A stretch of DNA of 64,000 nucleotides from Patescibacteria group bacterium (GCA_028707495.1 JAQWAS010000005.1:1065-65064); one strand, 5' to 3'; positions 1 through 63,922 are shown, counted from the first letter of the stretch. Notes: generated from the sequence alone by a model not told the origin. Numbers and translations: made by a program.

Positions 1-981
1 GAAAAAGAACTCAAGCACTACAAGAAACAATTTCGAGGCAAGATTGTTTATTGTAATTGTGATGATCCATACGAGAGCAACTTTTTTAAATACTTCGCAT
101 CCAACTTTAATGCCCTTGGATTAAAAAAGATTATCGCCACGAGTTACAGTGGTTCACCGATTATTGGAGGCCAATTACCTCTATTTCAAATGGCTGGCTC
201 AAAGGGCAAACAACCGCTCAAAATTGAGATTAAAGAAGTGCCAGACATAGATAAAGATGGGGCAATAAACCTTGACGATGTTAAGTATTTGCTCAAACAT
301 GATAAAAACACCGCCACCCCATTAAAAAGTAGCGGCGATTTTCGAAGTGATGAGTGTATAAAACTACTAAAGCAAGCCGATATAGTCGTAACCAATCCGC
401 CGTTTTCTTTGTTCCGTGAATACTTGGCTCAACTGATGGAATACAATAAGAAATTTTTAATTCTCGGCGATCAAAATAACATAACTAAAAAAGACATTTT
501 TAAATTTATAAAGGAAAATAAAGTATGGCTTGGTTACGATAATGGTGGCACAAAGTGGTTCCAGGTGCCAGATGATTATGATATTGCAACCGAGTCAAGA
601 AAAAAAATTGTAAATGGAATCAAGTACTTCAGTATGGGGAGAATTTTGTGGTTTACTAATCTTGAAACTACCAAGCGGCACGAGAATATTGTGTTGTATA
701 AAAAATATGTACCTGAAGAATTTCCTAAGTATGACAACTACAATGCCATTAACATTGACAAGGTTTCCGACATTCCAAAGAATTATAATAGAGTAATGGG
801 TGTTCCGATAACATTTATTGATAAATATAATCCCGAACAGTTTGAACTATTGGGAATTATGAATACAGGCGAAAAAAATATAGGCATAAGATACAAAGGG
901 ACACCACACGGAAGACCGCTTGTGAACGGGGTTGAAAAGTATCTTCGTATTTTAATAAAAATAAAAAAACTAAAAAAATAA
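1..981 (+). CDS. N6-adenine DNA methyltransferase, EcoRI-methylase-like family (5' end outside window)
   Basis: Open frame 1 runs from base 1 with no start (EKELKHYKKQFRGKIVYCNCDDPYESNFFKYF...). NPPF catalytic motif (IVVTNPPFSLFREYL). VYCNCDDP and GVMGVPITF blocks resemble the M.EcoRI family, recalled from memory. Stop at 979-981 overlaps the next start. Confidence 0.65.
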   Translation, partial: EKELKHYKKQFRGKIVYCNCDDPYESNFFKYFASNFNALGLKKIIATSYSGSPIIGGQLPLFQMAGSKGKQPLKIEIKEVPDIDKDGAINLDDVKYLLKHDKNTATPLKSSGDFRSDECIKLLKQADIVVTNPPFSLFREYLAQLMEYNKKFLILGDQNNITKKDIFKFIKENKVWLGYDNGGTKWFQVPDDYDIATESRKKIVNGIKYFSMGRILWFTNLETTKRHENIVLYKKYVPEEFPKYDNYNAINIDKVSDIPKNYNRVMGVPITFIDKYNPEQFELLGIMNTGEKNIGIRYKGTPHGRPLVNGVEKYLRILIKIKKLKK

Positions 982-982
982 T

Positions 983-2089
983 ATGAAAATCGATCTACAT
1001 AAAATCACAATTCGTAAAGTTATAGCTGGCTATAAAGATAGCGCCGAAGAAGGCGTAACGGCGTACGATGACAAATTAAATATTCGTCCAAAATATCAAC
1101 GTGAGTTTGTATACAAGGAAAAACAACGCAATGCAGTAATAGAAACTATCAAAAATAGCTTTCCGCTAAATGTGATGTATTGGATGATTAGAGAAGATGG
1201 CGGTTACGAAGTATTGGACGGACAACAGCGCACAATCAGTATTGGGCAGTATGTTACTGGCGATTTTTCACTGAACGACCGCTTTTTTCATAATTTAACC
1301 AAAGAGGAGCAGGAGAAAATTTTAGATTATGAATTGATGATTTATTTTTGCGAAGGCACGGACAAAGAACGACTGGATTGGTTTAGGATTATCAATATTG
1401 CCGGTGAAAAACTGACTGATCAGGAGATCCGCAATGCGGTTTATACTGGCCCATGGCTCTCGGACGCCAAATTAAAATTCAGCAAATCAAATTGTGTGGC
1501 GTACTTATTGGCAAATGACGGTGGCTCGCTTGTTAGTGGCTCACCAATACGACAAGAATATTTAGAAACAGCACTTTCTTGGATAAATGATGGCAAAATC
1601 GAAGATTACATGGCTAAACACCAGCACGATAAAAGTGCCGATGAGCTATGGGATTATTTTCAAAATGTAATTGCGTGGGCACGAGAGGCTTTTACTAATT
1701 ATCGCCGAGAAATGAGCAATGTGCCTTGGGGCGTGCTATACAACCAATTCAATAGTAAAAAAATTGATTCAAAGAAACTGGAAAAGGAAATAGCAAAGTT
1801 GATGCAGGACGAAGATGTGACTAAAAAATCCGGCATTTATGAATATGTTTTAACTAGAAATGAAAAGTTTTTGAATATACGAGCTTTCACCGAAAAAATG
1901 AAGCGTGAAGCATATGAGAGACAAAAAGGAATTTGTCCGCATTGTAAAGGCAAGAATAAAAAAAAGAAATGGGAAATTGAAGAAATGGAAGCCGACCATA
2001 TAAAGCCTTGGCACGAAGGCGGAAAAACAACTGCAGTAAATTGCCAAATGTTATGCAAACAAGACAATAGAACTAAATCAGGAAAATAA
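983..2089 (+). CDS. DUF262 (ParB/Srx-like, DGQQR motif) protein with C-terminal HNH nuclease motif
   Basis: N-terminal LDGQQR motif typical of DUF262/ParB-like NTPase-nuclease domains. C-terminal CPHCKGKN...ADHIKPWHEGGKTTAVNCQMLCKQDN is an HNH ββα-metal motif with two CxxC pairs. Start is 1 nt after the MTase stop (taatATG). Confidence 0.65.
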   Translation: MKIDLHKITIRKVIAGYKDSAEEGVTAYDDKLNIRPKYQREFVYKEKQRNAVIETIKNSFPLNVMYWMIREDGGYEVLDGQQRTISIGQYVTGDFSLNDRFFHNLTKEEQEKILDYELMIYFCEGTDKERLDWFRIINIAGEKLTDQEIRNAVYTGPWLSDAKLKFSKSNCVAYLLANDGGSLVSGSPIRQEYLETALSWINDGKIEDYMAKHQHDKSADELWDYFQNVIAWAREAFTNYRREMSNVPWGVLYNQFNSKKIDSKKLEKEIAKLMQDEDVTKKSGIYEYVLTRNEKFLNIRAFTEKMKREAYERQKGICPHCKGKNKKKKWEIEEMEADHIKPWHEGGKTTAVNCQMLCKQDNRTKSGK

Positions 2090-2162
2090 AGACAATATAT
2101 TACACCGAATGGAAGAATAAGGTATTTTATCATCCTACTTAAAAAAATTATTATTAAAAACA

Positions 2163-4766
2163 ATGTCAATAATAGCAGACATAATAGATTGGTCTGGTGG
2201 TAAACCAATATTTCTCCAGGAGGCCATTGGACGAATTATCCAAAAAAACGTCTTATCAGATGATGATATTTTAGAATTAACATTAATTTGCAAATCGGAG
2301 CAAGGACTAACAAAATATCAAGGAAATTTAATAGATCTAAAAAAAGTAAAAGAATCTTTAAAAGAGTCCGATGTATCTAACGCTGTTTCTGTGATAAAAA
2401 TTTTTTCGACGGAAAATATAAATGCTTTACAAAACAATTCTGAAATAGATATTGAAGAAAAAGGATTAACGGTTATATATGGTGACAATGGATCGGGAAA
2501 ATCTAGTTATGTCAGTATATTGAAACAAGTTTGCAACACGAGAGGAAGTATTCCCACAATTAATAAAAACCTTTTTATTGGATCTGCCGCGCAACAAAAT
2601 CAAAAAGCCAAAATACAGTACAAAACAGGAGAAAATGTGGCTTCGGTTACTTGGGAAAACAACAATTCAGACAGTAACATATTGAAGGCAGTGCACATAT
2701 ACGACACAAAAAGTGCAAGTTCTTATATTGAAGATGAAGATGAAATCGCTTTTATCCCTTCGGGTTTATTAATCGTAGAACAACTCGCCAATGTATGTAA
2801 TAGGATTGAAGAAAATCTCAGAAAAGAAATAGGACAAATAGAATCAAGAAAACTTGATTATTCATTTTTAATTAATGAAGAAGGTAATGGAATTCAAACT
2901 TTTTTAAAAAACCTTAGTGCAAGAAGTGATCTAAAAACATTAGACAATATCTCAAATTTTACGACTGACGATGAAAAGTTGCTAAAAGCAACAGAACAAG
3001 AAATCGCAAAATTAAAAACACTAGATCCTGCTCAAAAAATATCTGAAAATAATAAAATTATATCTCGTTTTAACTCTCTAAAAGCAAGGTACGAGCAGAT
3101 ACTATCTAAATTATCTATTGAAAAAATTGAAGAAATAAAAAAAGACGTTCTAAAGAGCACTGAACTTCAAAGCGCAAGCAAAGCTCTCACCGAACAAACC
3201 TTTTCGGATTTACCACTGAAAAGTATTGGGTCTCAACCATGGAAAGTATTATGGGAAAGCGCAAAGAGATTTTATCAATATTCTGAATCAAAAAATTTTC
3301 CTGACCACGACGAAAGCTCAGTGTGCCCTCTTTGTTTACAAAATTTAAGTGATGAGGCAAAAGAAAGATTTAAAAATCTCGAGGCATTCGTACAGTCAGA
3401 TATACAAAATCAAATAAACGCCATTGGGATTAAATTGCGTCAGTCAAGTCAAGAAATTTCGAGTATTAATTTGAATTTTTCGGAAATTGAAACCACCCTT
3501 AATGAACTCGATGAAATATCTAGTAATTTTAAGCAACGGCACGCAAATCAAATAGATACAATTAATAAGTACGTAATTTCTGTAATGAACTTACTTGCAG
3601 GACGAGAAAGCCCTGGGTCATTTAATGCGCAAGAGCTATCTATAGATCTGATTGAAGTAATAAAGAAAATTGTAGAAAAAATTGAGGAAGAAAATAAGAC
3701 GCTGTTACAAAAATCATATCAAAAAGACCTTGAAGCACAAGCAAAGACTCTTTCATTGCTAAAATCTAAAAAAGATTTATCTGAAAATAAAGAAAAAATA
3801 AAAGACGAGATAAAAAGACAACGTTTTGTAGATGGTCTATTTTTATGTATACGAACTTGCAACACGAGACATATTTCAATTTTAAGCAACACATTATCAG
3901 AACAGTACATCACAGAAACGCTCAAAAATAACTTTACAGATGAACTAAAAAGACTTGGTTTTACTGGAGTAGAAATAGTTACATCAACTCGAAGTAGAAG
4001 CGGAAAACAATATCATTTTCTTGAATTAGATTCATCATATGGAAGTAACGCGAACTTGAAGGAAATACTAAGCGAGGGAGAACACAGATGTATTTCTTTG
4101 GCTACGTTTTTGTCGGAACTTTCCATTTCAGGACATAAATCTTCAATTATATTTGATGATCCGGTCTCTTCTCTAGATCATAAATGGCGAAAAAAAATTG
4201 CTAAAAGAATTGTAGAAGAATCACAGGAAAGACAGGTTATTGTTTTTACACATGACATTACTTTTTTAATGAACCTTCAAGAGTTTGATGACGAAATAAA
4301 AATCCAAAGCTTGACTAGAAAAAAATTTGAAACTGGCATATCCTCAAAAAATCCACCATGGGATGCATTATCTACAAAAAATAGAATCAAAATATTAAAG
4401 GAATACTTACAGCAATTAGAAGAGGCCAAAAATACTGAAACAGAAGAAATTTATAAAGAAAAATCTAAAGTATTTTATGGACAACTTCGTGAAGCATGGG
4501 AAAGATGTATTGAGGAGGTTGTTTTGAATGAATCTGTACAAAGATTTGGTCGTTCTATACAAACTAAACGACTAGAAAAAGTTGTTGATTTAACGGAGGA
4601 AGACTATAAAATTATTGAAGATAATATGGAAGAATGTTCAACTTATCTTACGGGCCATGATAGTGCAGGAGAATTAATTGAAGAGGCGCCCACAATTGAA
4701 GAAACAAAAAATGACTTAGCCGCTTTAGAAATTTTTACAAAAACCATACACAAGAGAAGACAATAA
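2163..4766 (+). CDS. RloC/PrrC-like ABC ATPase with coiled-coil zinc hook (putative anticodon-nuclease / abortive-infection protein)
   Basis: Walker A LTVIYGDNGSGKSS near N-terminus. Long charged, coiled-coil-like middle with SSVCPLCLQNL (CxxC zinc hook as in Rad50/RloC). Walker B/D-loop SIIFDDPVSSLD and H-loop VFTHD at ~aa 650-690. ~190-aa C-terminal tail with R..E..H-type residues. Located in an R-M context. Confidence 0.5.
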   Translation: MSIIADIIDWSGGKPIFLQEAIGRIIQKNVLSDDDILELTLICKSEQGLTKYQGNLIDLKKVKESLKESDVSNAVSVIKIFSTENINALQNNSEIDIEEKGLTVIYGDNGSGKSSYVSILKQVCNTRGSIPTINKNLFIGSAAQQNQKAKIQYKTGENVASVTWENNNSDSNILKAVHIYDTKSASSYIEDEDEIAFIPSGLLIVEQLANVCNRIEENLRKEIGQIESRKLDYSFLINEEGNGIQTFLKNLSARSDLKTLDNISNFTTDDEKLLKATEQEIAKLKTLDPAQKISENNKIISRFNSLKARYEQILSKLSIEKIEEIKKDVLKSTELQSASKALTEQTFSDLPLKSIGSQPWKVLWESAKRFYQYSESKNFPDHDESSVCPLCLQNLSDEAKERFKNLEAFVQSDIQNQINAIGIKLRQSSQEISSINLNFSEIETTLNELDEISSNFKQRHANQIDTINKYVISVMNLLAGRESPGSFNAQELSIDLIEVIKKIVEKIEEENKTLLQKSYQKDLEAQAKTLSLLKSKKDLSENKEKIKDEIKRQRFVDGLFLCIRTCNTRHISILSNTLSEQYITETLKNNFTDELKRLGFTGVEIVTSTRSRSGKQYHFLELDSSYGSNANLKEILSEGEHRCISLATFLSELSISGHKSSIIFDDPVSSLDHKWRKKIAKRIVEESQERQVIVFTHDITFLMNLQEFDDEIKIQSLTRKKFETGISSKNPPWDALSTKNRIKILKEYLQQLEEAKNTETEEIYKEKSKVFYGQLREAWERCIEEVVLNESVQRFGRSIQTKRLEKVVDLTEEDYKIIEDNMEECSTYLTGHDSAGELIEEAPTIEETKNDLAALEIFTKTIHKRRQ

Positions 4767-4892
4767 GGAGTTTTGGGCTACGGGCATTCACCCCTTTAAT
4801 TCCCCTCTGCCCTTCGCCCAAAACGGAAAAAGAAATTTTAAAATTTTTTAAAACAATTCCGACTGCTGTCGGATAAAAGAAAAGGAATACAT

Positions 4893-4996
4893 CAGCTAAC
4901 ACGGCATATCTGGTTACGGTTCGCCTCCGGCGAGCCTCCACCCATATTTTACTTCGCTTCGCTCTGTAAAACATCAGATATGCCGAAACGTTATAC
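4893..4996 (+). repeat. attC-like structured palindrome A (R'' agctaac, L'' ggcatatctg ... L' cagatatgcc, spacer gaaac, R' gttatacg)
   Basis: Perfect 10-bp inner inverted repeat 4902-4911 / 4974-4983. Outer TAAC/GTTA cores. Asymmetric spacers (2 vs 5 nt). ~60-nt variable centre. Lies between RloC-like stop and HD gene start. Confidence 0.5.
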
Positions 4997-5059
4997 GAAA
5001 TTCACTCCGCCCCACCTCAAAGACAAACTTTTATAAAATAGCTTAAATCTATCTAAAAT

Positions 5060-5731
5060 ATGGATCAAAAATTTCAAAAAATCAAAGAAGCTGTAGAAAA
5101 GGAACTTTCCTGTTCTGCTCACAATATGGATCATGTAATGAGAGTTTATAATCTTTCTTTGCATCTTGCTGAAAATAAAGATATTGATTTAGATGTTCTC
5201 AAAGCATCTGCTTTATTACATGATATCGCAAGAGTCAAAGAAGATAATGATCATACTGGAAAAACCGATCATGCAATCTTAAGCTCTGAAATGGCAGTGC
5301 CAATTTTAAAAGAACTTGATTTTTCAGAAGAACAAATTAAGCACATTCAAGATTGCATAATCTCACACAGATACAGAACAGGAAATGAAGCTAAAACCAA
5401 AGAAGCTCAAATTCTATTTGACGCAGATAAATTAGACACTCTTGGTGCAATCGGAATTGCAAGAAGTTTTGTCTGGGTTGGAAGAAATAACGCCAAAATT
5501 TATACAGATACCAATATTGAAAAATATATAGATGAAAATTTAGGCGGAAAAATAAACGGAAGAATCCAAGACAAAACTAAACATAGTCCGCAAATAGAAT
5601 TTGAAACGAAATTGAAATTTTTGATCACTAAGTTGCATACTGATAAAGCTAAAGAAGTATGCAAAGAAAGAATTGAATTTTATAAAAGTTTTTTAGATAG
5701 ATTAAAAAGCGAAATTAATGGTGAACTATAA
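5060..5731 (+). CDS. HD-domain metal-dependent phosphohydrolase
   Basis: H...HD...H...D pattern (SAHNMDHVMRV, ALLHDIARV, ISHRYRTG, FDADKLD). Confidence 0.7.
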   Translation: MDQKFQKIKEAVEKELSCSAHNMDHVMRVYNLSLHLAENKDIDLDVLKASALLHDIARVKEDNDHTGKTDHAILSSEMAVPILKELDFSEEQIKHIQDCIISHRYRTGNEAKTKEAQILFDADKLDTLGAIGIARSFVWVGRNNAKIYTDTNIEKYIDENLGGKINGRIQDKTKHSPQIEFETKLKFLITKLHTDKAKEVCKERIEFYKSFLDRLKSEINGEL

Positions 5732-5796
5732 AACGGTGGGGCTCCGTGAACTCAAGGGGACGCTGCGCTTTCACTCCACTTCGTTTCGTTCACCCT

Positions 5797-5898
5797 CGTA
5801 TAACAAGGGATAAAAGGAAAATTGCTCGGCTCGCAATTTTCCCAAATTTTTCTTTCACTCCGTTCCAGAAAAACTTCTTTTATCCCCGATGTTATACG
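5797..5898 (+). repeat. attC-like structured palindrome B (R'' cgtataac ... R' gttatacg)
   Basis: 5' arm cgtataacaagggataaaagg pairs with 3' arm ccttttatccccgatgttatacg. This gives a 9-bp outer stem, a 2/3-nt asymmetric internal loop and a 10-bp inner stem. Central hairpin aaaattgc/gcaatttt. Confidence 0.5.
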
Positions 5899-5930
5899 AA
5901 ATAATTAAATTCTTTTGGCTATCGCCAAAA

Positions 5931-5960
5931 ATTATTGGGGCAAATTTTTATTTTATTTTT
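5931..5960. repeat. Left copy of perfect 30-bp inverted repeat attattggggcaaatttttattttattttt
   Basis: Exact reverse complement present at 7644-7673. The pair brackets three plus-strand membrane ORFs (5967-7635). Confidence 0.8.
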
Positions 5961-5966
5961 TAGAAC

Positions 5967-7019
5967 ATGAACAAAAACCAAATCATAACATTATCAGGAT
6001 ATAGTATCATCCATGGGATTATAGACCTATGCTGTGCAGTGGTTGTTTTTAGTACATTACTATATCATGGTTATGATGCAAAAGATGTCTTTATTTTTGT
6101 CGTGGCTTACAATGTAATAGCTTTTGGACTACAAGCACCTTTTGGATTTTTAGTGGATAGATATCAAGTCCCCAAAGAAAGCGCTTTAATTGGTTGTATT
6201 TTAGTTTTATCTTCTTTTTTTATATTTAGTATACCTGCTTTGGTTATAATATTATCAGGATTAGGAAATGCTTTTTTTCATGTTGGCGGAGGAAGTATCA
6301 GTTTAAATTTTAATCCAACCAAAGCAACTGCACCGGGGATTTTTGTTGCGCCGGGCGCGCTAGGGCTAACAATCGGAATCATGGTTGGTAAAAGCGGATC
6401 ATTTATTTCTTGGCCTTTTGTTTTATTGCTTATTGCTTCATGTCTATTTATTATCTCTAGAAAAATCCCAGAAATTAACTATCAAAAAATATCGGCCAAA
6501 CCAAAAATTAAGTACTTTGAATTAATTATCATATTGCTTTTACTTTCTGTCGCAATAAGGGCTCTTTATGGCTTAGCCGCCGCTTGGAAAACTGACTTTA
6601 ACTTATTATTGATTTTGACCTTTGCAATAGTCGCTGGCAAGGCATTAGGTGGAATTTTTGCTGATAAGTTTGGATGGATAAAAACCGCAATTTTTGCGTT
6701 GGTAGTTTCAGCTCCCTTGCTTGCTTTTTTCCAAAGTTCACCAATACTAGCTATAACTGGTGCATTTTTATTTCAAATGACCATGCCAATAACATTAACT
6801 GCTCTATCGAACATGCTTCCAGGCAGATCAGCCACTGCTTTTGGTTTAACGGTTTTAGCTTTGATTATAGGCGTTATTCCTACTTACATTGGAGCCAAGC
6901 CATTTTTAAACAATCAATGGATAACTCTTGCAATTGTAGCCATATCTGCAAGTTCGCTACTAATTAGTTTCAAATTTTTGTATAATTATTTCAAAGGTCA
7001 ACTTAAAATTAATTTATAA
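5967..7019 (+). CDS. Polytopic membrane protein, MFS-transporter-like
   Basis: 350 aa, ~10-11 hydrophobic helices, G-rich helix motifs (GAFLFQMTMPITLTALSNMLPGRSATAFG). Confidence 0.45.
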   Translation: MNKNQIITLSGYSIIHGIIDLCCAVVVFSTLLYHGYDAKDVFIFVVAYNVIAFGLQAPFGFLVDRYQVPKESALIGCILVLSSFFIFSIPALVIILSGLGNAFFHVGGGSISLNFNPTKATAPGIFVAPGALGLTIGIMVGKSGSFISWPFVLLLIASCLFIISRKIPEINYQKISAKPKIKYFELIIILLLLSVAIRALYGLAAAWKTDFNLLLILTFAIVAGKALGGIFADKFGWIKTAIFALVVSAPLLAFFQSSPILAITGAFLFQMTMPITLTALSNMLPGRSATAFGLTVLALIIGVIPTYIGAKPFLNNQWITLAIVAISASSLLISFKFLYNYFKGQLKINL

Positions 7020-7036
7020 TTTAATCAAAATAGCTT

Positions 7037-7291
7037 ATGAAAAAAATCAAAACAGTCTTAATAACCCTTTCCTTCTTCGCAGTTTCATCGCTAATGTTTG
7101 CACAAAATGCGCTAGCGGATTTACTGCCTCCTCCTGATGGCGGATGGGACACTCCAAGCAGACCAAACATCAATCCAGAACCAAAAACTTTTATTGATTT
7201 AATTGAACCACAACATATTGTTATTGGCGGAGCAGTTTTGGCTGTAGTAATAATATCTTTTGTAGTGCTCTTTAAAATGAGAAAAAAATGA
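7037..7291 (+). CDS. Small secreted protein with C-terminal TM anchor
   Basis: Signal peptide MKKIKTVLITLSFFAVSSLMFAQNALA, proline-rich segment, C-terminal hydrophobic helix + KMRKK. Confidence 0.4.
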   Translation: MKKIKTVLITLSFFAVSSLMFAQNALADLLPPPDGGWDTPSRPNINPEPKTFIDLIEPQHIVIGGAVLAVVIISFVVLFKMRKK

Positions 7292-7635
7292 GATTAGAAT
7301 ACTATTTTCTAGCTCTAATTTTAACTCTAATAATTGAGCTATCCATAGCTTATGTTTTTGGATTTAGGAGTAAAAAAAACATTGTTACGATTATTTTTGC
7401 TAATTTCATAACACACCCCTTGCTTTGTTATTTTTTATGGATGAATTCAGTTATCTTTGTTATTCCAATTAATTACATTTCAATTATTGTTTTAGAGGTA
7501 TTGGTTGCATTATTAGAATCAGCTCTATTATTTTTAGCACTAAAACAAAAATACTTAGATATGTTAAAATTATCATTTGGTATAAACATAGTATCTTTTC
7601 TTGTTGGTTTATTAATATTCAAAAATAATTTTTAA
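7288..7635 (+). CDS. Small integral membrane protein
   Basis: 115 aa, 3-4 hydrophobic segments. Start overlaps the previous stop (ATGA). Confidence 0.4.
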   Translation: MRLEYYFLALILTLIIELSIAYVFGFRSKKNIVTIIFANFITHPLLCYFLWMNSVIFVIPINYISIIVLEVLVALLESALLFLALKQKYLDMLKLSFGINIVSFLVGLLIFKNNF

Positions 7636-7643
7636 ATAAGGAA

Positions 7644-7673
7644 AAATAAAATAAAAATTTGCCCCAATAATAA
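7644..7673. repeat. Right copy (inverted) of 30-bp perfect repeat
   Basis: aaaaataaaataaaaatttgccccaataat is the reverse complement of 5931-5960. Confidence 0.8.
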
Positions 7674-7683
7674 CTCGCTATCG

Positions 7684-7772
7684 CTCGTTGAATTTAATTA
7701 CATCATATAACAGCGTGTATGAGGCTACGGCTTTTTACAAAAGCCTTCGCCCAAATTGCTTCGCAACTTCTC
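7684..7772 (+). repeat. attC-like structured palindrome C (R'' catataac ... R' gttatacg)
   Basis: 5' arm catataacagcgtgtatgagg vs 3' arm ctcatacgcgcgaacgttatacg. Central hairpin ggcttttt-aca-aaaagcc. Confidence 0.5.
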
Positions 7773-7846
7773 ATACGCGCGAACGTTATACGTCGTAATA
7801 AAAATCCTCCTTATATTTTTTAATAATTTTGGTAACTTATAAAATT

Positions 7847-8086
7847 ATGAAAACACTAGAACAAAGAGAACCGCAATCAACACCAAATCAAGAATTAGAC
7901 AATCTTAAAAAAGAATTGGAAGAAAAAGGATATGTCGTGACAGAAACATCCCAACGTGGACAAAAGACTGATGTTACTATAAAAAATGATCTTGGTCAGG
8001 AAGGTAGTGGTGAAGGATATACATACGAAACAGCGCTTAAAAAAGCAATAACAGCTTTAGATTACATTATAAAAAATAAACTATAA
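7847..8086 (+). CDS. HicB-like / UPF0150-fold small protein (possible antitoxin-type)
   Basis: LGQEGSGEGYTYETALKKAITAL resembles the G.G.T.EEAL.NA.EA signature of HicB/UPF0150. The ORF-track start at 7829 uses TTG; the first ATG is 7847. Confidence 0.4.
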   Translation: MKTLEQREPQSTPNQELDNLKKELEEKGYVVTETSQRGQKTDVTIKNDLGQEGSGEGYTYETALKKAITALDYIIKNKL

Positions 8087-8111
8087 AAAAAGGAATCGAC
8101 TTTTTATTACG

Positions 8112-8186
8112 ACGTATAACACCGCATATCCAACATACTTTTTCACTCCATTCAAAAGTACGTCGGATCATGCAGAAACGTTGTGC
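8112..8186 (+). repeat. attC-like structured palindrome D (R'' cgtataac ... R' gttgtgcg)
   Basis: 5' arm cgtataacaccgcatatcc vs 3' arm ggatcatgcagaaacgttgtgcgac. Inner stem has one bulged C. Spacers 1 vs 4 nt. Confidence 0.5.
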
Positions 8187-8310
8187 GACATACATTTTTT
8201 ATCTCTTCTACAATTGAAAGTCAGAATTGAAATCAGGAAACAAAACAAGATTTTTGATTTTTAAGGAGGGGAATAAGGAACTTTTTTATCTAAATTAATG
8301 AAAAAAATTA

Positions 8311-8964
8311 ATGAAAAAAAATTTAGGAGTTATAAAAAACGGTTTATTCACAGGGTTTGTAATTCAATTGGCAATTGGACCAATCTTCTTTTTTGTGATT
8401 AATCTTACTCTTCAGAAAACCATTCTTGATGGGCTAATGGGAGTTTTTGCGGCGACAATTGTTGGATACATTTACATTGCTCTTTCTGCTTTTGGTATCG
8501 GAAAATTGCTCGAAAATAAAAAAACAAGTAAAATATTTGCAGCAATTAGTTCAATTGTTCTAATAATTTTTGGAGGAATAATTATAAAAGGAGCTTTAAG
8601 TAGCGGAGTTTCTGATAGTGTGATCAATACATCAAGTCTTTTTTCTAGCTTTACATCCGTTTTTTTACTTGCGATTTCTAATCCATTGAGCATTGTCTTT
8701 TTTACAAGTCTGTTTTCAACAAAAGCAATTGAATATAATTATACGAAAAAAGAACTGTATTTTTTTGGTCTAGGGACTGGATTATCAACTTTGATATTTA
8801 TGGGTGGTGCTGTTTTGATTTTTTCTTTACTCAAAGGCACAATACCAACAATTGTTATGCAAATACTGAACATAATTGTAGGAATTCTAATAATCGGATA
8901 TGGTACAATGAGATTGGTAAAACTTTTGAAAGAAAATAGGTTGGCTCGCAAAATTCACCCCTAA
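8311..8964 (+). CDS. LysE/RhtB-type small-molecule exporter (6-TM)
   Basis: 217 aa, six hydrophobic helices, N-terminal AIGPIFFFVINLTLQ resembles the LysE/RhtB family. Confidence 0.45.
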   Translation: MKKNLGVIKNGLFTGFVIQLAIGPIFFFVINLTLQKTILDGLMGVFAATIVGYIYIALSAFGIGKLLENKKTSKIFAAISSIVLIIFGGIIIKGALSSGVSDSVINTSSLFSSFTSVFLLAISNPLSIVFFTSLFSTKAIEYNYTKKELYFFGLGTGLSTLIFMGGAVLIFSLLKGTIPTIVMQILNIIVGILIIGYGTMRLVKLLKENRLARKIHP

Positions 8965-9061
8965 CCCCTCTTTTGCTCGCCAAATGGAAAAAATCTTGTT
9001 TTGTTTGGCTTGAAAAATAAGGTCTAGATTGTAATTCACGAGATAAAAAATGTACTAAACC

Positions 9062-9130
9062 CTACGGGGTCGCACAACTGCCACTATCCGACATCCTCCG
9101 CTATCGCTACGGACGATCGGATCAGTGGCA
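9062..9130 (+). repeat. attC-like structured palindrome E (R'' gcacaac ... R' gttatta)
   Basis: 5' arm gcacaactgccactatccg vs 3' arm cggatcagtggcatacgttatta. Same bulged ggatCa feature as D. Last element before the strand switch. Confidence 0.45.
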
Positions 9131-9145
9131 TACGTTATTAAATTT

Positions 9146-25608: not shown

Positions 25609-27066
25609 ATGTTTGAACAATCATTTAAAAATATCGATAATATACTTCACACCGATTCTGGCTGTGGAACCGAGCTTGATTATGTGGAGCAAACTTCATG
25701 GATTTTGTTTTTGAAATATCTTGATGATTTGGAAGAAGACAAGAAAAAGTCAGCCACTTTGTCTGGCAAAAGTTATGAATATATTTTATCCCCGGAATAT
25801 CGCTGGAACAATTGGGCTTGTCCTAAAAATGTAGGTGGAAAGTTAGACCATAACAAAGCGCTAGATGGCGATGATCTGAAAGAATTTGTAAATAACAAAC
25901 TTTTCCCATATCTCAAAAAATTTAAAGCGGAAGACCCGAATACGATTGAATACAAAATCGGCGAAATCTTTTCTGAACTAAAAAATAAAATCCAGAGCGG
26001 TTACAAGCTACGAGAAATTTTGAATGTTGTGGACAGCATGCATTTTCGGCTTTATGAAGAAAAGCATGAACTTTCTCATCTCTATGAAGCGAAAATTAAA
26101 AATATGGGCAACGCCGGCCGAAATGGCGGTGAATATTATACGCCTCGTCCGTTGATTGCCACTATCGTGAAAGTAGTAGTACCAAAAATTGGCGATACGA
26201 TTTATGACGGTGCTTGCGGAAGCGCGGGTTTTTTGGTGGAGGCTTATAAGTATCTTACAGAAAATCAATCAAAATTGTCTTCCGGTCAAATGGCGACTTT
26301 GCAGAATAAAACTTTTTACGGCAAAGAAATCAAATCTCTTGCCTACATCATCGGCATTATGAATATGATCTTGCATGGCATTGAAGCGCCGAATATTCGC
26401 CACACGAATACTCTAGCAGAAAACATTAATGATATTCAGGAGAAAGATCGTTTTGACATTATTCTCGCCAATCCTCCTTTTGGTGCAAAAATAGGAACTG
26501 AACTTCAACAGAATTTTCCAATTAAATCCAGCTCATCTGATAATTTATTTTTACAACATTTTATCAAGATTTTGAAAGCTGGCGGAAGAGCTGGCATTGT
26601 TATTAAAAATACTTTTCTTTCCAATACTGACAACGCAAGTGTTTCGCTTCGCAAACTCCTATTAGAAAATTGCAATCTGCATACGGTTTTGGATTTGCCG
26701 GGTGGCGCTTTTCAGGGTGCAGGCGTAAAAACTGTGGTTTTGTTTTTTGAAAAGGGCAAGCCAACAAAAAGGGTTTGGTTTTATCAGCTTAATCTGGCGC
26801 GTAATCTGGGCAAGGGTCAACCTTTGAGTGAAGCAGATTTGGCAGAGTTTGTGGAATTGCAAAAAAACAAGGCGGACAGCGCGAATTCATGGTCAATAGA
26901 TGTGAAAAATGTTGATCAAGGCACTTTTGATTTATCGGTAAAAAATCCGAATAAAAATGACGAGGTGATTTTAAGAGAGCCAAAAGAGATTTTGGAGGAG
27001 ATGAAGAAATTGGATGAAGAGAGCGGAGAAATATTTAAAAATATCAAACACATAATTCATGACTAA
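25609..27066 (+). CDS. hsdM: Type I restriction-modification methyltransferase subunit HsdM
   Basis: HsdM N-terminal domain, motif I GDTIYDGACGSAGFL, motif IV ILANPPFG. Confidence 0.85.
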   Translation: MFEQSFKNIDNILHTDSGCGTELDYVEQTSWILFLKYLDDLEEDKKKSATLSGKSYEYILSPEYRWNNWACPKNVGGKLDHNKALDGDDLKEFVNNKLFPYLKKFKAEDPNTIEYKIGEIFSELKNKIQSGYKLREILNVVDSMHFRLYEEKHELSHLYEAKIKNMGNAGRNGGEYYTPRPLIATIVKVVVPKIGDTIYDGACGSAGFLVEAYKYLTENQSKLSSGQMATLQNKTFYGKEIKSLAYIIGIMNMILHGIEAPNIRHTNTLAENINDIQEKDRFDIILANPPFGAKIGTELQQNFPIKSSSSDNLFLQHFIKILKAGGRAGIVIKNTFLSNTDNASVSLRKLLLENCNLHTVLDLPGGAFQGAGVKTVVLFFEKGKPTKRVWFYQLNLARNLGKGQPLSEADLAEFVELQKNKADSANSWSIDVKNVDQGTFDLSVKNPNKNDEVILREPKEILEEMKKLDEESGEIFKNIKHIIHD

Positions 27067-28564
27067 TACTGCTATTAAAATTTATTTTTCGGACTATTTT
27101 GAAATAGACCATAGCAAGATAGAAAGTTATGGCGCTCTTGATATTTCCTTATTATCTGATAATCCCGCTTTCGTTGATCCATTCTTAATTTTTTATAGCA
27201 AAAATAAAGACTATCAAAAACTGCATCAATTTATCGTCAATTATTTAATCTTTTTAAAAAAGCAAAGCGATGATGGAAACTTCTCTCAACTATTCTACGC
27301 CTTTCCAGAAGTAAATGAGGTTTGGCTTGGCTTTTCAAAAAGTGGAAACAGGGGGCTTGGCTTAGGTAAATATTTTGCAAATGAACTAAATGAAAATCTG
27401 GTTAGTATTTTCAAGGGAAGTAAAAACAAAATCACAAAAAGTACGCATATTGAAAAACTTTGCATTATCGGAGAGCGAGTTGGCGCGGATAAAGTAAGCG
27501 ATTTTACATTAAATCTGATAAAACACTATTTAGTAAAGTATACTGAAAAATTTGCCACTGAAAATTTAGATAAAAAATATATTTCAAAATTTAGGGTATC
27601 AAAATTATACTTTGATTTTGAAAAAAATAACTGGGTAGACGGTGAAGCCACTCTTCCAATAAGTCCACATAATAAATCGGATTTTGTTTTGTTAACTCCT
27701 AAAGATATTTTGGTAAAAGAAGAGGGCTGGATATCTGTAAATGATTTTTTGAACAATGACGGGTTGATTATAAACAATATTCCAAATGACGATTTACGTT
27801 ATAAAATCAATCAGTATTTTCTTTCTTTAATTCCAGATAAGCGCAATAAACGAGGCAAACCGGAAAAAGATTTTTCAAAGAAAAACACTAGAACTGCCTT
27901 AAAAGAAACGGCAAAAAAATATCCTGAATTAATCGATTATTTCATAAAGTACAAGGAAGAAAATGGGCAGGGTGCAGTTGAAGCAAGTTTAATTGATAAC
28001 GATTTTTTAAAGCAAGTTTTTTATCTTGGTGTTAAAACGATTACAGAAAAATTAAAAACAGAGGGATTTTACTCGATAGATAAAAAGGATAATTCATTTT
28101 TAGAAACAGTAGATAAAATCAAAAAATTTAAATATGTATTGGAAAAAAGAGATGGTTGCGATGTATTTTGGGACAAAAATAAGTTAAGAAAATTTAAAGA
28201 GCCAGATGTAGACAAAATGATTGATTTAGTTTTCGCATCTTCTGATTTTTCCGTAGACAAGCAGGTTAATAACGGAAGAGGGCCATCTGATATTAAAGTT
28301 TCAAAAGGATCTGCTGATTGTACTATCATAGAAACGAAACTTGCTAAAAACACACAGCTAGAAAAAAATTTACAAAAACAGCTAAACATCTACAAGGAAG
28401 CAAATAATACAGCTAATGGTGTTTATGTGATTTTATATTTTAATGATTCTGAACTTAAAAAAGTGGATAGCATATTGAAAGGATTAAAAATGACTGAATT
28501 TGTTGATGAATGGATATTTTTAATTGATTGCAGAAAGAAAATATCTGCTTCAAAGGCTTCATAA
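27059..28564 (+). CDS. Uncharacterised 501-aa protein embedded between hsdM and hsdS; C-terminal PD-(D/E)xK-like motif
   Basis: Overlaps hsdM stop (ATGA). C-terminal DLVFAS...GPSDIKVSKGSADCTIIETKLAKN fits a D...(D/E)xK nuclease signature. No family recognised. Confidence 0.35.
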   Translation: MTNTAIKIYFSDYFEIDHSKIESYGALDISLLSDNPAFVDPFLIFYSKNKDYQKLHQFIVNYLIFLKKQSDDGNFSQLFYAFPEVNEVWLGFSKSGNRGLGLGKYFANELNENLVSIFKGSKNKITKSTHIEKLCIIGERVGADKVSDFTLNLIKHYLVKYTEKFATENLDKKYISKFRVSKLYFDFEKNNWVDGEATLPISPHNKSDFVLLTPKDILVKEEGWISVNDFLNNDGLIINNIPNDDLRYKINQYFLSLIPDKRNKRGKPEKDFSKKNTRTALKETAKKYPELIDYFIKYKEENGQGAVEASLIDNDFLKQVFYLGVKTITEKLKTEGFYSIDKKDNSFLETVDKIKKFKYVLEKRDGCDVFWDKNKLRKFKEPDVDKMIDLVFASSDFSVDKQVNNGRGPSDIKVSKGSADCTIIETKLAKNTQLEKNLQKQLNIYKEANNTANGVYVILYFNDSELKKVDSILKGLKMTEFVDEWIFLIDCRKKISASKAS

Positions 28565-28569
28565 TTTAT

Positions 28570-29799
28570 ATGAAAATGAGTATTACTAAAAAAACTAACT
28601 GGCAAACAAAAAAACTTAGCGAAATTTGTGATTTTTTTACTGATGGTAATTGGATTGAAAGCAAAGACCAATCGTCTGATGGTATACGACTGATTCAAAC
28701 TGGAAATATCGGTCAGGGTTTTTTTAAAGATCGTGGAGAAAAAGCACGTTATATTTCTGAGAAAACTTTTAAGCGATTAAAATGCACGGAAATTTATAAA
28801 GGAGATATTTTGATTTCACGATTGCCCGACCCTGTCGGAAGGGCTTGCATCTTGCCTGAAATAGGTGAAAAAATGATCACCGCTGTTGACTGCAGTATTT
28901 TAAGATTAAATAAAAACACTTCCCCCAAATTTTTAAATTATTACACCCAATCAAATAGTTATTTAAGTGAAGTTGAGCAAAAGACGACAGGCACCACTCG
29001 AAAAAGAATTAGTAGAAAAAATTTAGGTTTAGTAAAAATTCCTCTCCCGCCCCTCCCCGAACAACACCGCATCGTAAAAATTTTGGATGAGGTTTTTGCG
29101 GATGTGGCGATGGCGGAAGAAAATGCGGAAAAAAATCTTCAAAACGCCAAAGAGCTTTTTGAATCGTATTTGCAGAGTGTTTTTGCGAATCAGGGAGAAA
29201 ATTGGGAAGAAAAAAGGCTTGAGGAACTTGGTAAAATAACATCGAGTAAACGAATATTCAAAAAAGAATATGTAAAAAACGGCGTTCCTTTTTATAGAAT
29301 TAAAGAAATTAAAGAGCTTGCACACAACAAAAATATTACACTTGAGTTATATATTTCCCCAAAAAGATACAAAGAAATAAAAGACGTTTTTGGAGTACCA
29401 CTGGTCGGAGATATCCTAATGACTGCAGTAGGAACGATTGGTGAAATATGCGTAGTAAAAAATGAAGAGGAATTTTATTTTAAAGATGGAAATATACTCT
29501 GGTTCAAAAACTTTAATTCAGTTGATCCCCATTATTTAAAATTTGTTTTGATGTCATTTGTTGAGCAAATAAATAAATTATCTAAAGGTTCAGCATATAA
29601 TGCTTTGACGATTGAAAAAATAGAAAAACACAGAATATTTCTTCCGTTATCAATTACCGAACAAAAATCCATCGTCGCTAAACTAGACGCGCTTTCTGCT
29701 GAAACCAGAAAACTGGAAACGATTTACCAACAGAAATTAGCTGATTTGGAGGAGTTGAAAAAGTCGGTTTTAAAGAGGGCGTTTAGTGGGGAATTGTAG
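28570..29799 (+). CDS. hsdS: Type I R-M specificity subunit HsdS (two target-recognition domains)
   Basis: Duplicated TRD architecture with conserved central and C-terminal helices (LPPLPEQHRIVKILDEVF...; SITEQKSIVAKLDALSAETRKLE). The ORF-track start at 28528 overlaps the upstream gene; the ATG at 28570 is preferred. Confidence 0.75.
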   Translation: MKMSITKKTNWQTKKLSEICDFFTDGNWIESKDQSSDGIRLIQTGNIGQGFFKDRGEKARYISEKTFKRLKCTEIYKGDILISRLPDPVGRACILPEIGEKMITAVDCSILRLNKNTSPKFLNYYTQSNSYLSEVEQKTTGTTRKRISRKNLGLVKIPLPPLPEQHRIVKILDEVFADVAMAEENAEKNLQNAKELFESYLQSVFANQGENWEEKRLEELGKITSSKRIFKKEYVKNGVPFYRIKEIKELAHNKNITLELYISPKRYKEIKDVFGVPLVGDILMTAVGTIGEICVVKNEEEFYFKDGNILWFKNFNSVDPHYLKFVLMSFVEQINKLSKGSAYNALTIEKIEKHRIFLPLSITEQKSIVAKLDALSAETRKLETIYQQKLADLEELKKSVLKRAFSGEL

Positions 29800-29881
29800 T
29801 TTTGTTAATCCTTGTTAACCCTGCTTGACATATAAGTTAACATCTGTTAACCTTATAGTATATTAAGGTTAACAAACATTT

Positions 29882-30160
29882 ATGACAAAAAAAACAAAAA
29901 AAACTTATGTTTCAGTAGCTGAATTAGCTAAAATCATAGGGATAAGCCGAATTGCCGTTTTTAAACGAATCAAAAAAGAACAAATTCCCGCTGAAAAAAT
30001 TGGACATTCTTATGTGATTTCTATGGATTATATTGACGAAATTACCAAAGGAAATCACGCAAGAGCTTTAACAGAAAAAGAAAAAAGAGAAATTCAAGAA
30101 GCTGTCGAAAGGGTTATAAATGAATATAGCAAAACGCTTCAATTGTTAGGTAAAGAATAA
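29882..30160 (+). CDS. Helix-turn-helix DNA-binding protein (excisionase/MerR-like HTH)
   Basis: YVSVAELAKIIGISRIAVFKRIKKEQIPAEKIG is an HTH_17-like motif. Confidence 0.5.
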   Translation: MTKKTKKTYVSVAELAKIIGISRIAVFKRIKKEQIPAEKIGHSYVISMDYIDEITKGNHARALTEKEKREIQEAVERVINEYSKTLQLLGKE

Positions 30161-30164
30161 TCCT

Positions 30165-30587: not shown

Positions 30588-30592
30588 ATAAT

Positions 30593-63704: not shown

Positions 63705-63747
63705 GGATGGTGTTTATTGTGAGAATTAATATAGGGAGCGACATTTT

Positions 63748-63889
63748 GGATAACGTTTCGGCATATCTGATGTTTGCCAAAATTCCTTTAAAAATCAATT
63801 AGTTTTGGCAAATTTGGGTGAAAGAATTTTTTACTCCTTATTAATATTAAAAATGAAAAATTCTTGAACCAGATATGCCGTGTTGTGCG
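63748..63889 (-). repeat. attC-like structured palindrome (inverted orientation). Inner stems identical to element A
   Basis: Minus-strand reading: R'' gcacaac, spacer ac, L'' ggcatatctgg ...~100 nt... L' cagatatgcc, spacer gaaac, R' gttatcc. 142 bp. Lies between two minus-strand ORFs. Confidence 0.5.
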
Positions 63890-63922
63890 ATGTTCAAGCC
63901 TGAGCCGTTCGTTGCTTAACAT

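Follow-up and report, generated by a model that had tools for sequence, protein, structure and literature searches.

Results

The DNA analysed here (the window) is a 64-kb stretch of a 70.3-kb source contig of a Patescibacteria group bacterium, and carries near its left end a series of plus-strand ORF units, each closed by an imperfect palindrome (sites A to E), with a sixth site, F, on the minus strand near its right end. As in an integron cassette, each ORF unit is flanked by two boxes with complementary variable bases, GTT at the 5′ end and AAC at the 3′ end. Sites, cassettes and cargo are as follows, with bit scores and E values from R1, a covariance model trained on 44 elements from metagenome and GTDB contigs, window sequences excluded.

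190..4888, plus strand: cargo of the cassette closed by A (Pfam); 5′ boundary not found in the window
190-981, plus: EcoRI-type methylase (Pfam), cargo closed by A
983-2089, plus: GmrSD_N+HNH nuclease (Pfam), cargo closed by A
2163-4766, plus: AAA_13/RloC-type ATPase (Pfam), cargo closed by A
4757-4888, plus: conserved 3′ module, 70-97% conserved in about 100 loci
4889..5001, plus: site A, closes the defence-gene cassette (79.6 bits, E = 2.7e-14)
4991..5891, plus: cassette 2, 901 bp; HD phosphohydrolase ORF 5060-5731 (Pfam HD and NCBIfam)
5793..5902, plus: site B, closes the HD cassette (49.7 bits, E = 4.2e-8)
5892..7785, plus: cassette 3, 1894 bp; ORFs 5967-7019, 7037-7291 and 7288-7635
7700..7796, plus: site C, closes the three-gene membrane cassette (72.8 bits, E = 6.7e-13)
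7786..8180, plus: cassette 4, 395 bp; small ORF 7847-8086, weak UPF0180 match only
8109..8191, plus: site D, closes the cassette of the 79-aa ORF (52.0 bits, E = 1.4e-8)
8181..9134, plus: cassette 5, 954 bp; LysE-type exporter ORF 8311-8964 (Pfam LysE)
9067..9143, plus: site E, last of the array, closes the LysE cassette (34.4 bits, E = 6.2e-5)
63743..63893, minus: site F, closes the SDR cassette of a second array (61.4 bits, E = 1.6e-10)

Beyond these six R1 has no significant match on either strand of the 64 kb, the next best (E = 0.75) being the reverse strand of A, and the 3′ motif AACGTTRTRC occurs four times in the window against 0.47 expected, a count reached in none of 100 shuffles. 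Site A runs ACATC-AGCT-AAC, A, the L box CGGCATATCTG, two inner hairpins, CAGATATGCCG, AAAC and GTT-ATAC-GAAAT; site B runs GTATAAC, AA, GGGATAAAAG ... CTTTTATCCC, CGAT, GTTATAC; and site C runs ATATAAC, A, GCGTGTATGAG ... CTCATACGCGC, GAAC, GTTATAC. Sites D (GTATAAC, A, CCGCATATCC ... GGAT(c)ATGCAG, AAAC, GTTGTGC) and E (GCACAAC, T, GCCACTATCCG ... CGGAT(c)AGTGGC, ATAC, GTTATTA) carry a bulged C on the 3′ arm and, once reconstituted, fold at -23.8 kcal/mol (z = -8.7) and -38 kcal/mol (z = -11.7), respectively. Site F has the L box of A, a different centre, R'' GCACAAC and R' GTTATCC. In every window copy the 5′ spacer is 1-2 nt and the 3′ spacer 4 nt.

An earlier note, made from the sequence alone, had placed five palindromes and the copy at 63.8 kb where R1 finds A to F, and had described their AAC and GTT outer cores, a 3′ spacer always longer than the 5′ one, the bulged C after GGAT in D and E, and variable centres with small hairpins, all of which the window sites bear out. 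Its view that the copies share an architecture and not a sequence has to be given up: the family has a sequence consensus, and the exact 18-mer of A's L box recurs in at least 240 contigs, at least 120 each from metagenomes and GTDB.

The site family is found across Patescibacteria (CPR), and no earlier description of these sites was found. Its consensus is ACATC-N4-AAC-A-N5-TAT-N3 ... N3-ATA-N5-RWAC-GTT-N4-GAAAT, usually with CCCAAATT between two inner hairpins. The L stem (L''/L') is conserved in structure and, its invariant TAT core apart, not in sequence: 92% of it is paired and 8 of 11 pairs have changed in a compensatory way, though this is partly circular, complementarity having been used to choose the training elements. 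Among 102 R1 hits, of which AAC and GTT were required, the R boxes mostly follow the canonical consensus, as GTT-R-K-R-Y and R-Y-M-Y-AAC, and the window sites conform to the inverse cores R'' RYYYAAC and R' GTTRRRY. The bulged base is optional (8/36 elements) and lies on L', the 3′ arm of the coding strand. Outside the window, homologues of site B occur in loci L121, L211, L040 and L252, the L-box type of C recurs in recombinase-adjoining arrays (e.g., L017), and in L156 an A-type site goes with a related GmrSD gene.

Within the window, complementarity over 9 to 79 nt links the R' of each site with the R'' of the following one. In cassette 2, R' GTTATACGA at 4990 is complementary to TCGTATAAC at 5796; cassette 3 has a 79-nt terminal inverted repeat (I1, 5882-5960 / 7642-7720, 78% complementary), cassette 4 a perfect one of 20 nt (I6, 7785-7804 / 8101-8120, 100% complementary), and cassette 5 two (I19 and I8: 8191-8205/9040-9054 and 8238-8255/8989-9006). 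The SDR cassette lacks complementary ends, and no GTTAGCT partner of site A was found upstream within the window. The GTTAT of site E is the break point of two independent assemblies. The second array runs off the window's right edge, beyond which L257 adds 756 nt; L257 itself starts with the end of another site, CGAAACGTTAAATGAAAT.

As to the cargo, the labels HD, LysE and RloC given in the earlier note stand, the last as an AAA_13 ATPase, whilst HicB-like and MFS find no Pfam or NCBIfam support; none of the three ORFs of cassette 3 matches either database. No tyrosine recombinase is present among the scanned ORFs (100 aa or longer, over the whole window bar a few overlapping ORFs judged spurious), in keeping with what the note had said of integrases, and no attI-like site was found in these 64 kb of the source contig. 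The array is therefore of CALIN type (at least two close co-oriented sites, no integrase near), provided that the sites count as attC-type: a stretch of 4.3 kb holds five of them, and no scanned ORF of the flanking DNA (4.9 kb on the left of A-E, 55 kb on the right) encodes a recombinase.

In related contigs all elements of a locus point the same way (112/112 elements in the 33/33 loci with two or more). Of 65 adjacent pairs, 37 (57%) have R'(n) and R''(n+1) complementary at all four variable bases, against 6/102 within one element and 6.8% of random pairs (p = 2e-26). The most recurrent protein family in the loci fished with A's 18-mer is a tyrosine recombinase, present in 15 of them, 14 of which hold 38 elements in arrays of up to seven. 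These arrays begin at a dif/attI-like site between the recombinase gene and the elements, and in eight loci the R' of this site and the R'' of the first element are complementary; by eye, such sites fit the dif form (28-30 bp, inverted arms, 6-8-bp centre). All tabulated arrays beside a recombinase of the same subfamily point away from its gene, the exceptions, L038 and L094, having a recombinase of a different subfamily. A co-oriented array starting from an attI beside a divergent recombinase gene is thus seen in related loci, the window having the co-oriented array only. As an independent check, four homologues of the recombinase were picked with no regard to the elements, and all four have arrays (6, 4, 1 and 6 elements), which lie upstream of the gene and run divergently from it. 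One related array has ORFs of IS200/IS605-type Y1 transposases at its far end.

The array-linked recombinase, of about 270 aa, is 31-38% identical to IntI1 and conserves all of R, K, H, R, H and Y. Every such protein lacks IntI1 residues ~201-232 and ~239-249, the IntI additional domain, and the alignment to VchIntIA breaks into two segments, leaving out residues 179-248. The integron integrase model TIGR02249 gives the recombinase 208-238 bits (cut-off 265, match split in two), the XerC and XerD models 180-204 bits (cut-offs 330-335) and XerA_Arch 203-240 bits (cut-off 220, which two of six proteins pass); its best PDB match is an archaeal XerA-like protein. At least 7321 homologues exist; they are ubiquitous in Patescibacteria, uniform in length and often named XerD. 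No integrase with the IntI-specific domain around patch III was seen among the scanned ORFs of the window or in the 259 loci, so that the IntI-type enzyme with this insertion, expected by the earlier note, gives way to one without it.

Junction sequences place the borders of the cassettes. In L039 cassettes 1 and 2 are 100% identical tandem copies of 963 bp, both junctions being exactly at GTT (...AAACTA/GTTAAGT at attI, ...CGATAC/GTTAAGT at the attC-like site). Another cassette follows attI in L107 and an attC-like site in L081, and L093 and L115 diverge right after GAAAC-GTT. The junctions agree with a cassette boundary at G/TT, and the 5′ end of a cassette is complementary to its own R''. 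L002 and L003, from other metagenomes, hold the LysE cassette at 100% identity; that of L002 follows an A-like site in place of D, and over its first 55 nt it departs from the window, a change that is not at GTT.

Discussion

These results suggest that the window at 4.9-9.1 kb is very probably the distal part of an integron-like cassette array, whose sites would be recombined by a short recombinase of IntI/XerA type. Family membership, array architecture, recombinase linkage, the complementarity of cassette ends and the position of the junctions are established by computation, and the earlier reading of attC-like sites closing co-oriented cassettes is supported by R'/R'' complementarity, recombinase/attI linkage, junctions at GTT and the LysE cassette behind another upstream site. 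The mobile unit would be a cassette of the form TT-N4-GAAAT ... cargo ... ACATC-N'4-AAC-A-(L stem, variable hairpins, L stem)-RWAC-G. When free or circular, its two ends could pair into a long hairpin with an R stem (7 bp and up to 70 nt of terminal repeat), an asymmetric internal loop of 1/4 nt, and the L stem with its invariant TAT. The presumed catalyst, the tyrosine recombinase of about 270 aa without the IntI additional domain, would join such sites to one another, or to the dif-like attI upstream of its own gene (TTCGTATA, 6-7 nt, GTT-N4-GAAAT), with the crossover at or immediately 5′ of GTT; the sites would probably act as folded single strands, presumably from one of the two strands. 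The array in the window, if still active, would be served in trans, or else be frozen.

A canonical CALIN, with ordinary attC sites and a true IntI with its additional domain encoded elsewhere in the genome, would account for the AAC/GTT cores, for R boxes close to RYYYAAC/GTTRRRY, for layout and cassette logic, and for the 208-238 bits on TIGR02249. It is nevertheless improbable: those scores are below the cut-off and come from split matches, the array-linked recombinases lack the IntI residues, no IntI with the insertion was seen in the 259 loci, and R1 matches none of the class 1 attCs, from which the sites differ by the length of the spacer and by the arm on which a bulge lies. Aligned class 1 sites (aac(6')-29a, aacA4, aadB, blaVIM-2, dfrA27) have 1-3 extra bases in L'', the 5′ arm, and about 5 nt of spacer per side, neither of which is found here; of the fold and extrahelical bases proposed as a check, the paired stems are as predicted, whilst the bulge is on the arm opposite to that of a canonical attC. 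Given a recombinase without the IntI-specific insertion, we call the system integron-like rather than a canonical IntI/attC integron. Less credible still is that the palindromes do not recombine at all, being REP/REPIN- or MITE-like repeats, terminators or RNA elements after genes. They are intergenic and downstream of ORFs, type A is highly repeated across genomes, and Y1 transposase ORFs do end one related array, but there are only six copies in the window, five of them in one array, and no Rfam family matches the elements. No T-tract follows the stems, and terminator-like and promoter-like sites are not above chance. Strict co-orientation, linkage to recombinase and attI, complementary ends across the cargo and exact GTT junctions are all unexpected of REPs or terminators, and the note's rejection of REP/REPIN, MITE and terminator is upheld. 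Taken singly, a REP/REPIN family does not suit six copies with no Y1 transposase in the window, nor an intrinsic terminator sites that end in GTT-N4-GAAAT, a scan of which calls none of A-F.

A more serious possibility, though still rather unlikely, is that the recombinase is the cell's only Xer, the 'attI' its chromosomal dif, and that the cassettes are small elements exploiting it, as IMEX do. The attI has two imperfect inverted arms and a 6-8-nt centre, and the prevalence and naming of the recombinase, the XerA cut-off reached by two of six and the archaeal PDB match all agree with this; Smyshlyaev et al. 2021 (PMC8138268), discussing simple recombinases that may compensate for Xer, list a Xer-related 'Cand' group from candidate phyla. 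The recombinase may be the housekeeping Xer, and its adjacency to arrays may reflect insertion at dif and not a dedicated integrase. Arrays, however, are also found far from any recombinase, and the one in the window lies beside the probable origin, a position not expected of a dif site. Such hitch-hiking is in any case a variant of the integron-like array proposed above, not its contradiction.

Comparison with known systems

Integron cassette arrays and CALINs are here understood in the sense of Cury et al. 2016 and IntegronFinder. As in integrons, attI separates a co-oriented array from a divergent recombinase gene in related loci, each cassette ends in an imperfect palindrome whose cores are AAC...GTT, its first bases are complementary to the R'' of its own site, and the crossover is at GTT, here as read from junction sequences. 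The cargo (defence genes, acetyltransferases, transporters, small unknown ORFs), the existence of integrase-less arrays and the 31-38% identity of the recombinase to IntI1 are further likenesses. Unlike in integrons, the recombinase has no IntI-specific additional domain, the R-L spacers are 1 and 4 nt as opposed to 5 and 5-6 nt in class 1 attCs, the L stem has an invariant TAT, and both flanks, ACATC and GAAAT, have a conserved sequence. A bulge may be missing and, where present, is on the coding strand's 3′ arm, whereas the aligned class 1 sites have their extra bases on the 5′ arm; cassettes carry terminal inverted repeats of 20-79 nt, and one site type is base-identical across classes of Patescibacteria.

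Exploiters of Xer/dif comprise IMEX such as the CTX phage, and single-recombinase systems include XerS/difSL, XerH/difH and archaeal XerA; CTX-type phages use folded single-stranded sites. The present system resembles them in its short, Xer-sized recombinase, in an attI beside the recombinase gene, as with difSL and xerS, which by eye is a dif-like two-arm site, and in that mobile DNA with a folded hairpin site would integrate, successive integrations giving tandem arrays. It differs in that the mobile units are single-gene cassettes and not phages or islands, that each has its own structured site with covarying stems, and that arrays reach at least seven units, also away from the recombinase. 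With REP/BIME and REPIN-RAYT the sites share the form of short intergenic imperfect palindromes downstream of genes, repeated in the genome; they differ from these in having no RAYT association, in their strictly oriented arrays, in ends that pair across a cargo gene and in their linkage to a tyrosine recombinase.

Results

Hairpin sites of the window and their family

The five palindromes claimed in an earlier note on this DNA were all found as described, their stems being recovered by inverted-repeat and pattern searches, and the 3′ motif AACGTTRTRC is enriched in the window (four matches against 0.47 expected). A further copy, the sixth (F), is on the minus strand at 63.8 kb; its stems are those of A, its centre is different.

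4889-5001, plus strand: site A
5793-5902, plus strand: site B
7700-7796, plus strand: site C
8109-8191, plus strand: site D
9067-9143, plus strand: site E
63743-63893, minus strand: site F

Read on the coding strand, every window site runs in the same order: N4-AAC (the 5′ outer core, R″), a spacer of 1-2 nt, a 10-11-bp stem (the inner stem, L″/L′), a variable centre that includes one or two small hairpins, the second arm of the stem, a spacer of 4 nt and GTT-N4 (the 3′ outer core, R′). The longer 3′ spacer of the earlier description is thereby present in every site (AAAC, CGAT, GAAC, AAAC and ATAC in A to E, in that order), as is the bulged base of D and E, in both a C after GGAT. What did not survive is the claim of a shared architecture without a shared sequence: A to E form one sequence family, with a common consensus and matches to R1, a covariance model trained on 44 elements from other metagenome and GTDB contigs. 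Such a model was adopted because simple scanners built on AAC...GTT and a stem lacked specificity, one giving 37 matches against 3-21 in shuffles and another missing C, D and E. With no window sequence in its training, R1 matches A, C, F, D, B and E (E = 2.7e-14 to 6.2e-5), and its scan of the window gave no other match below E = 0.75.

The consensus of aligned A-type copies is ACATC-N4-AAC-A-CGGCATATCTG-GTT-[hairpin]-CCACCCAWATT-[hairpin]-ACWT-CAGATATGCCG-AWAC-GTT-N4-GAAAT, both N4 blocks varying freely. Other L boxes are common, with the N5-TAT-N3 pattern and its complementary partner retained; when 44 diverse elements are aligned, pairing in the L stem reaches 92% and the TAT is invariant, and two-sided changes occur at 8 of 11 L-stem pairs, a count that is partly circular, the elements having been picked by complementarity. 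The 18-mer of A's L box, AACACGGCATATCTGGTT, has exact matches in at least 120 contigs from metagenomes and in the genomes of at least 120 GTDB species, and the genomes among the matches listed are mostly Uhr-, Parcu-, Moran-, Magasanik-, Kuenen-, Peregrini-, Gracili- and Saccharibacteria. Exact copies of the 18-mer are also present in MAGs labelled Methanophagales, Pacearchaeota, Gammaproteobacteria, Rhodospirillales, Spirochaetales and Hyphomicrobium (loci L139, L190, L159, L164, L166, L205 and others), full elements being confirmed by R1 in L139, L166, L190 and L205. These off-phylum sites could reflect mis-binning, mislabelling or cross-phylum transfer.

Each intervening gene lies between two complementary sequences, namely the GTT box with its flank in the site before it and the AAC box with its flank in the site after it.

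Complementary stretches between successive sites
A to B: 9 nt
B to C: 79 nt at 78%
C to D: 20/20 nt
D to E: 15 + 18 nt

When the two ends of a cassette (the ORF unit from a GTT box to the next site) are joined, hairpins of -22 to -38 kcal/mol are predicted (z = -5.4 to -11.7), each made of a long R stem, an asymmetric internal loop and the L stem. The terminal inverted repeats, 20-79 nt long (window 5882-5960/7642-7720, 7785-7804/8101-8120 and 8191-8255/8989-9054), reach far past the 7-bp R boxes and hold small GC hairpins of their own (GGCTATCGCC, CTCGCTATCGCTCG); we know of nothing comparable in canonical integron cassettes. Loops and flanks of the sites also carry the motif TTCACTCC (5003-5010, 5771-5778, 5851-5858 and 8141-8148), which is similar to the anti-Shine-Dalgarno end of 16S rRNA.

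Cargo and chromosomal setting

The window holds a CALIN-type array (a cluster of sites without an integrase) of five cassettes. The claimed absence of an integrase is borne out by a Pfam search of the ORFs of at least 100 aa (a few overlapping ones, judged spurious, omitted), which gave no tyrosine recombinase. A second array begins at the right edge with F and L257, a contig that extends this side by 756 nt; exact-protein look-ups aimed at lengthening the window gave short contigs only.

Cassettes of the five-cassette array
Cassette 1: at least 4.9 kb; methylase, GmrSD-type nuclease, AAA_13 ATPase
Cassette 2: HD hydrolase
Cassette 3: three-gene membrane unit
Cassette 4: 79-aa ORF
Cassette 5: LysE exporter

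The EcoRI-type adenine methylase ORF (190-981) matches only positions 91-345 of the PF13651 profile and so is N-terminally short; behind it come the GmrSD_N+HNH nuclease and the AAA_13 ATPase, all three apparently forming one defence cassette. The ~130 nt from the stop codon of ORF 2163-4766 to site A (4757-4888) are 70-97% conserved in ~100 loci; their complement is a common cassette 5′ end (GTTAGCTGAAATATTCCTTTTC...GGGCTATCGCCC...), and this pair of ends is found around cargo that differs from contig to contig.

The window is part of a Patescibacteria chromosome, with a 16S gene unlinked from 23S-5S and a probable origin near 19.4 kb, by gyrA, rnpA, yidC and dnaN, placed there because the GC-skew minimum and a gene-strand switch coincide with it. 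The window's GyrA has a 100% identical counterpart in an NCBI ‘Patescibacteria group bacterium’ MAG, on a contig of 70,322 bp. Both arrays (4.9-9.1 kb, plus strand; 63.8 kb, minus strand) are head-on to replication, and the coding strand of their sites is the leading-strand template. In sedentary integrons the strand that recombines is on this template, and by analogy the orientation of the two arrays would fit use of the top strand of the window sites. Three other loci likewise have dnaN close to A-type sites. Beyond the origin, at 25609-32974, is a restriction-modification locus of type I (HsdM, a 501-aa unknown ORF, HsdS, Fic/DOC and HsdR), with which no hairpin sites are associated. Promoter and terminator scans gave nothing exceeding chance, and a synteny scan of genome contigs with a ClpB/C-type ATPase found no relative.

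A recombinase beside the arrays

After clustering of all ORFs of the loci fished out, the most recurrent family was a protein of 266-278 aa, found in 15 loci, with Phage_integrase and Phage_int_SAM_4 domains. Its gene is upstream of, and divergent from, the elements in 12 of the 15, and an attI-like site, consisting of TTCGTATA, 6-7 nt and GTT-N4-GAAAT, lies 100-170 bp from its start codon, often with extra TTCGTATA copies upstream; eight loci show complementarity between its N4 and that of the first downstream hairpin. R1 detects 38 elements in 14 of the recombinase loci, and every tabulated array beside a recombinase of this subfamily is directed away from the gene (seven elements each in L039 and L110, six in L061 and five in L017). 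In L038 and L094 the recombinase is of a different subfamily and the array pattern is not matched. As an independent test, four homologues were picked from a protein search without reference to the elements, from MAGs labelled Peregrinibacteria, Parcubacteria, Bipolaricaulota and Berkelbacteria. In all four small divergent genes run upstream, where R1 gives 6, 4, 1 and 6 elements, all on the cassette strand, and it gives none on the other side of the recombinase gene.

The recombinase is 31-38% identical to IntI1 (reference sequence with a 100% match to plasmids) and retains R146, K171, H277, R280, H303 and Y312, but it is without IntI1 residues ~201-232, where the ALER motif of the additional domain stands, and without ~239-249; the phmmer alignment to VchIntIA falls into two blocks, skipping residues 179-248. 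In the PDB, an archaeal XerA-like protein is matched best, XerD scoring much lower. Among NCBIfam models, it scores 208-238 bits with that of the integron integrase (cut-off 265), 203-240 with XerA_Arch (cut-off 220), and far under the cut-offs with XerC and XerD. At least 7321 homologues exist, all of ~270 aa, variously named XerD, tyrosine recombinase or ‘tyrosine recombinase/integron integrase’; Smyshlyaev et al. 2021 (PMC8138268) describe a ‘Cand’ group of Xer-related recombinases of candidate phyla.

Some array-adjacent recombinase genes (L071/L104, L049, L061, L110) are apparently decayed, the product being 240 aa long with its C-terminus unrelated in one case, a 103-aa fragment in another and N-terminally short in others. 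In L256, a six-site array with many GNAT acetyltransferase cassettes, two IS200/IS605-type Y1 transposase ORFs lie at the far end (988-2307).

Array order and probable cassette exchange

Two or more elements are present in 33 of 56 loci, and all 112 elements there are co-oriented within their locus (33/33), at spacings of 55-6861 nt, mostly 0.3-1.6 kb. The N4 after the GTT of one site and the N4 before the AAC of the next are complementary at all four positions in 37 of 65 adjacent pairs, and at three or better in 54, as opposed to full complementarity in 6 of 102 cases within one element and 6.8% of random pairs (binomial p = 2e-26); an earlier regex-based estimate went in the same direction.

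Behind attI, L039 has a 963-bp unit twice in succession as its first two cassettes, the copies being 100% identical, with left junctions ...TAAACTA|GTTAAGTAAAAT at attI and ...GCCGATAC|GTTAAGTAAAAT at an attC-like site. A 984-nt cassette (94% identical) is the first after attI in L107 and stands behind another cassette's site in L081, the two loci diverging exactly 5′ of GTT, and L093 and L115 have a common cassette end and site through GAAAC-GTT and differ from N4 on. All three sets of junctions support GTT as the point of exchange. A ‘flipped’ model, with crossover in the 5′ AAC box and each hairpin upstream of its gene, was rejected because the first unit after attI begins with GTT-N4-GAAAT and cargo rather than with a hairpin, and because of the L039 duplicate. 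Two other metagenomes contain the window's LysE cassette (8195-9138) at 100% identity, one of them with an A-like site before it in place of D; since this junction is not at GTT, the rearrangement is not a clean site-specific product. The ends of contigs L001 and L004 were considered as breaks at R boxes and set aside, the overlap of neighbouring contigs by only 8 nt indicating low coverage instead.

Mini-cassettes of 55-96 nt, free of ORFs, lie between two sites in L015, L030, L090 (6836-6932) and L097. They contain only GTT-N4-AAAAT, a loop and ATTTT-N4-AAC, some being followed by a minimal site such as AAC-GCGCGG-CGGTTC-CCGCGC-GTT, and could be empty landing pads or remnants.

Discussion

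Judged by its sequences, the system is integron-like in its putative working and homologous to the integron in its recombinase and core sites; because this recombinase fails the test that defines an integron integrase, we place it as a variant outside integrons proper. Its recombinase may be a dedicated integrase or else the cell's Xer; in the second case attI would be dif. Going further, it is tempting to speculate, with somewhat less than even confidence, that Patescibacteria have a phylum-wide integron system without the IntI additional domain. Capture of hairpin-ended cassettes, at an attI resembling dif, would then fall to a recombinase of Xer size, which may be the only Xer that the cell has. 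Such a system would be either a surviving intermediate between Xer and IntI or an independent invention of the integron principle, and also a major route of gene flow, defence systems included, in these reduced genomes.

A search of full-text literature found no description of integrons or of such sites in Patescibacteria/CPR, and the IntegronFinder 2.0 survey and the archaeal integron paper make no mention of either in this group. Standard pipelines would presumably call the recombinase Xer and the arrays at best orphan sites, since an integron is there defined by the IntI insertion. In a 2026 permafrost study (PMC13323075), ~97% of the contigs with an ‘integron-type’ recombinase had no complete integron by IntegronFinder, novel attC sites being offered as one possible cause; the Patescibacteria system may help to explain such contigs without detectable attC. 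If active, it would mean that cassettes can be captured without the domain thought essential for recognition of folded attC, and would bear directly on how integron integrases arose from Xer-like ancestors (Escudero et al. 2016, PMC4792948). It would also show concretely how ultrasmall symbionts exchange genes for defence and transport, whilst the conservation of cassette ends, together with the mini-cassettes free of ORFs, may bear on how cassettes are born.

For comparison, class 1 sites were read from plasmid integrons (aac(6′)-29a, -29b, blaVIM-2, arr-3, aacA4, aadB, aadA2 and dfrA27), a sample of 8-9 distinct sites, several of them close relatives, none of which is detected by R1. Both kinds of site have AAC/GTT cores, with R-box consensuses GTT-R-K-R-Y and R-Y-M-Y-AAC, and in both the longer spacer is on the 3′ side. 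On the coding strand, however, the R-to-L spacers of class 1 attC are 5 nt and 5-6 nt, as opposed to 1 nt and 4 nt in the Patescibacteria sites, and class 1 has 1-3 extra bases in the 5′ arm L″ (five sites with aligned arms), whereas only 8 of 36 Patescibacteria sites have a bulge, and this in the 3′ arm L′. The Patescibacteria sites are further set apart by their conserved ACATC and GAAAT flanks and TAT core, and their cassettes by long terminal inverted repeats.
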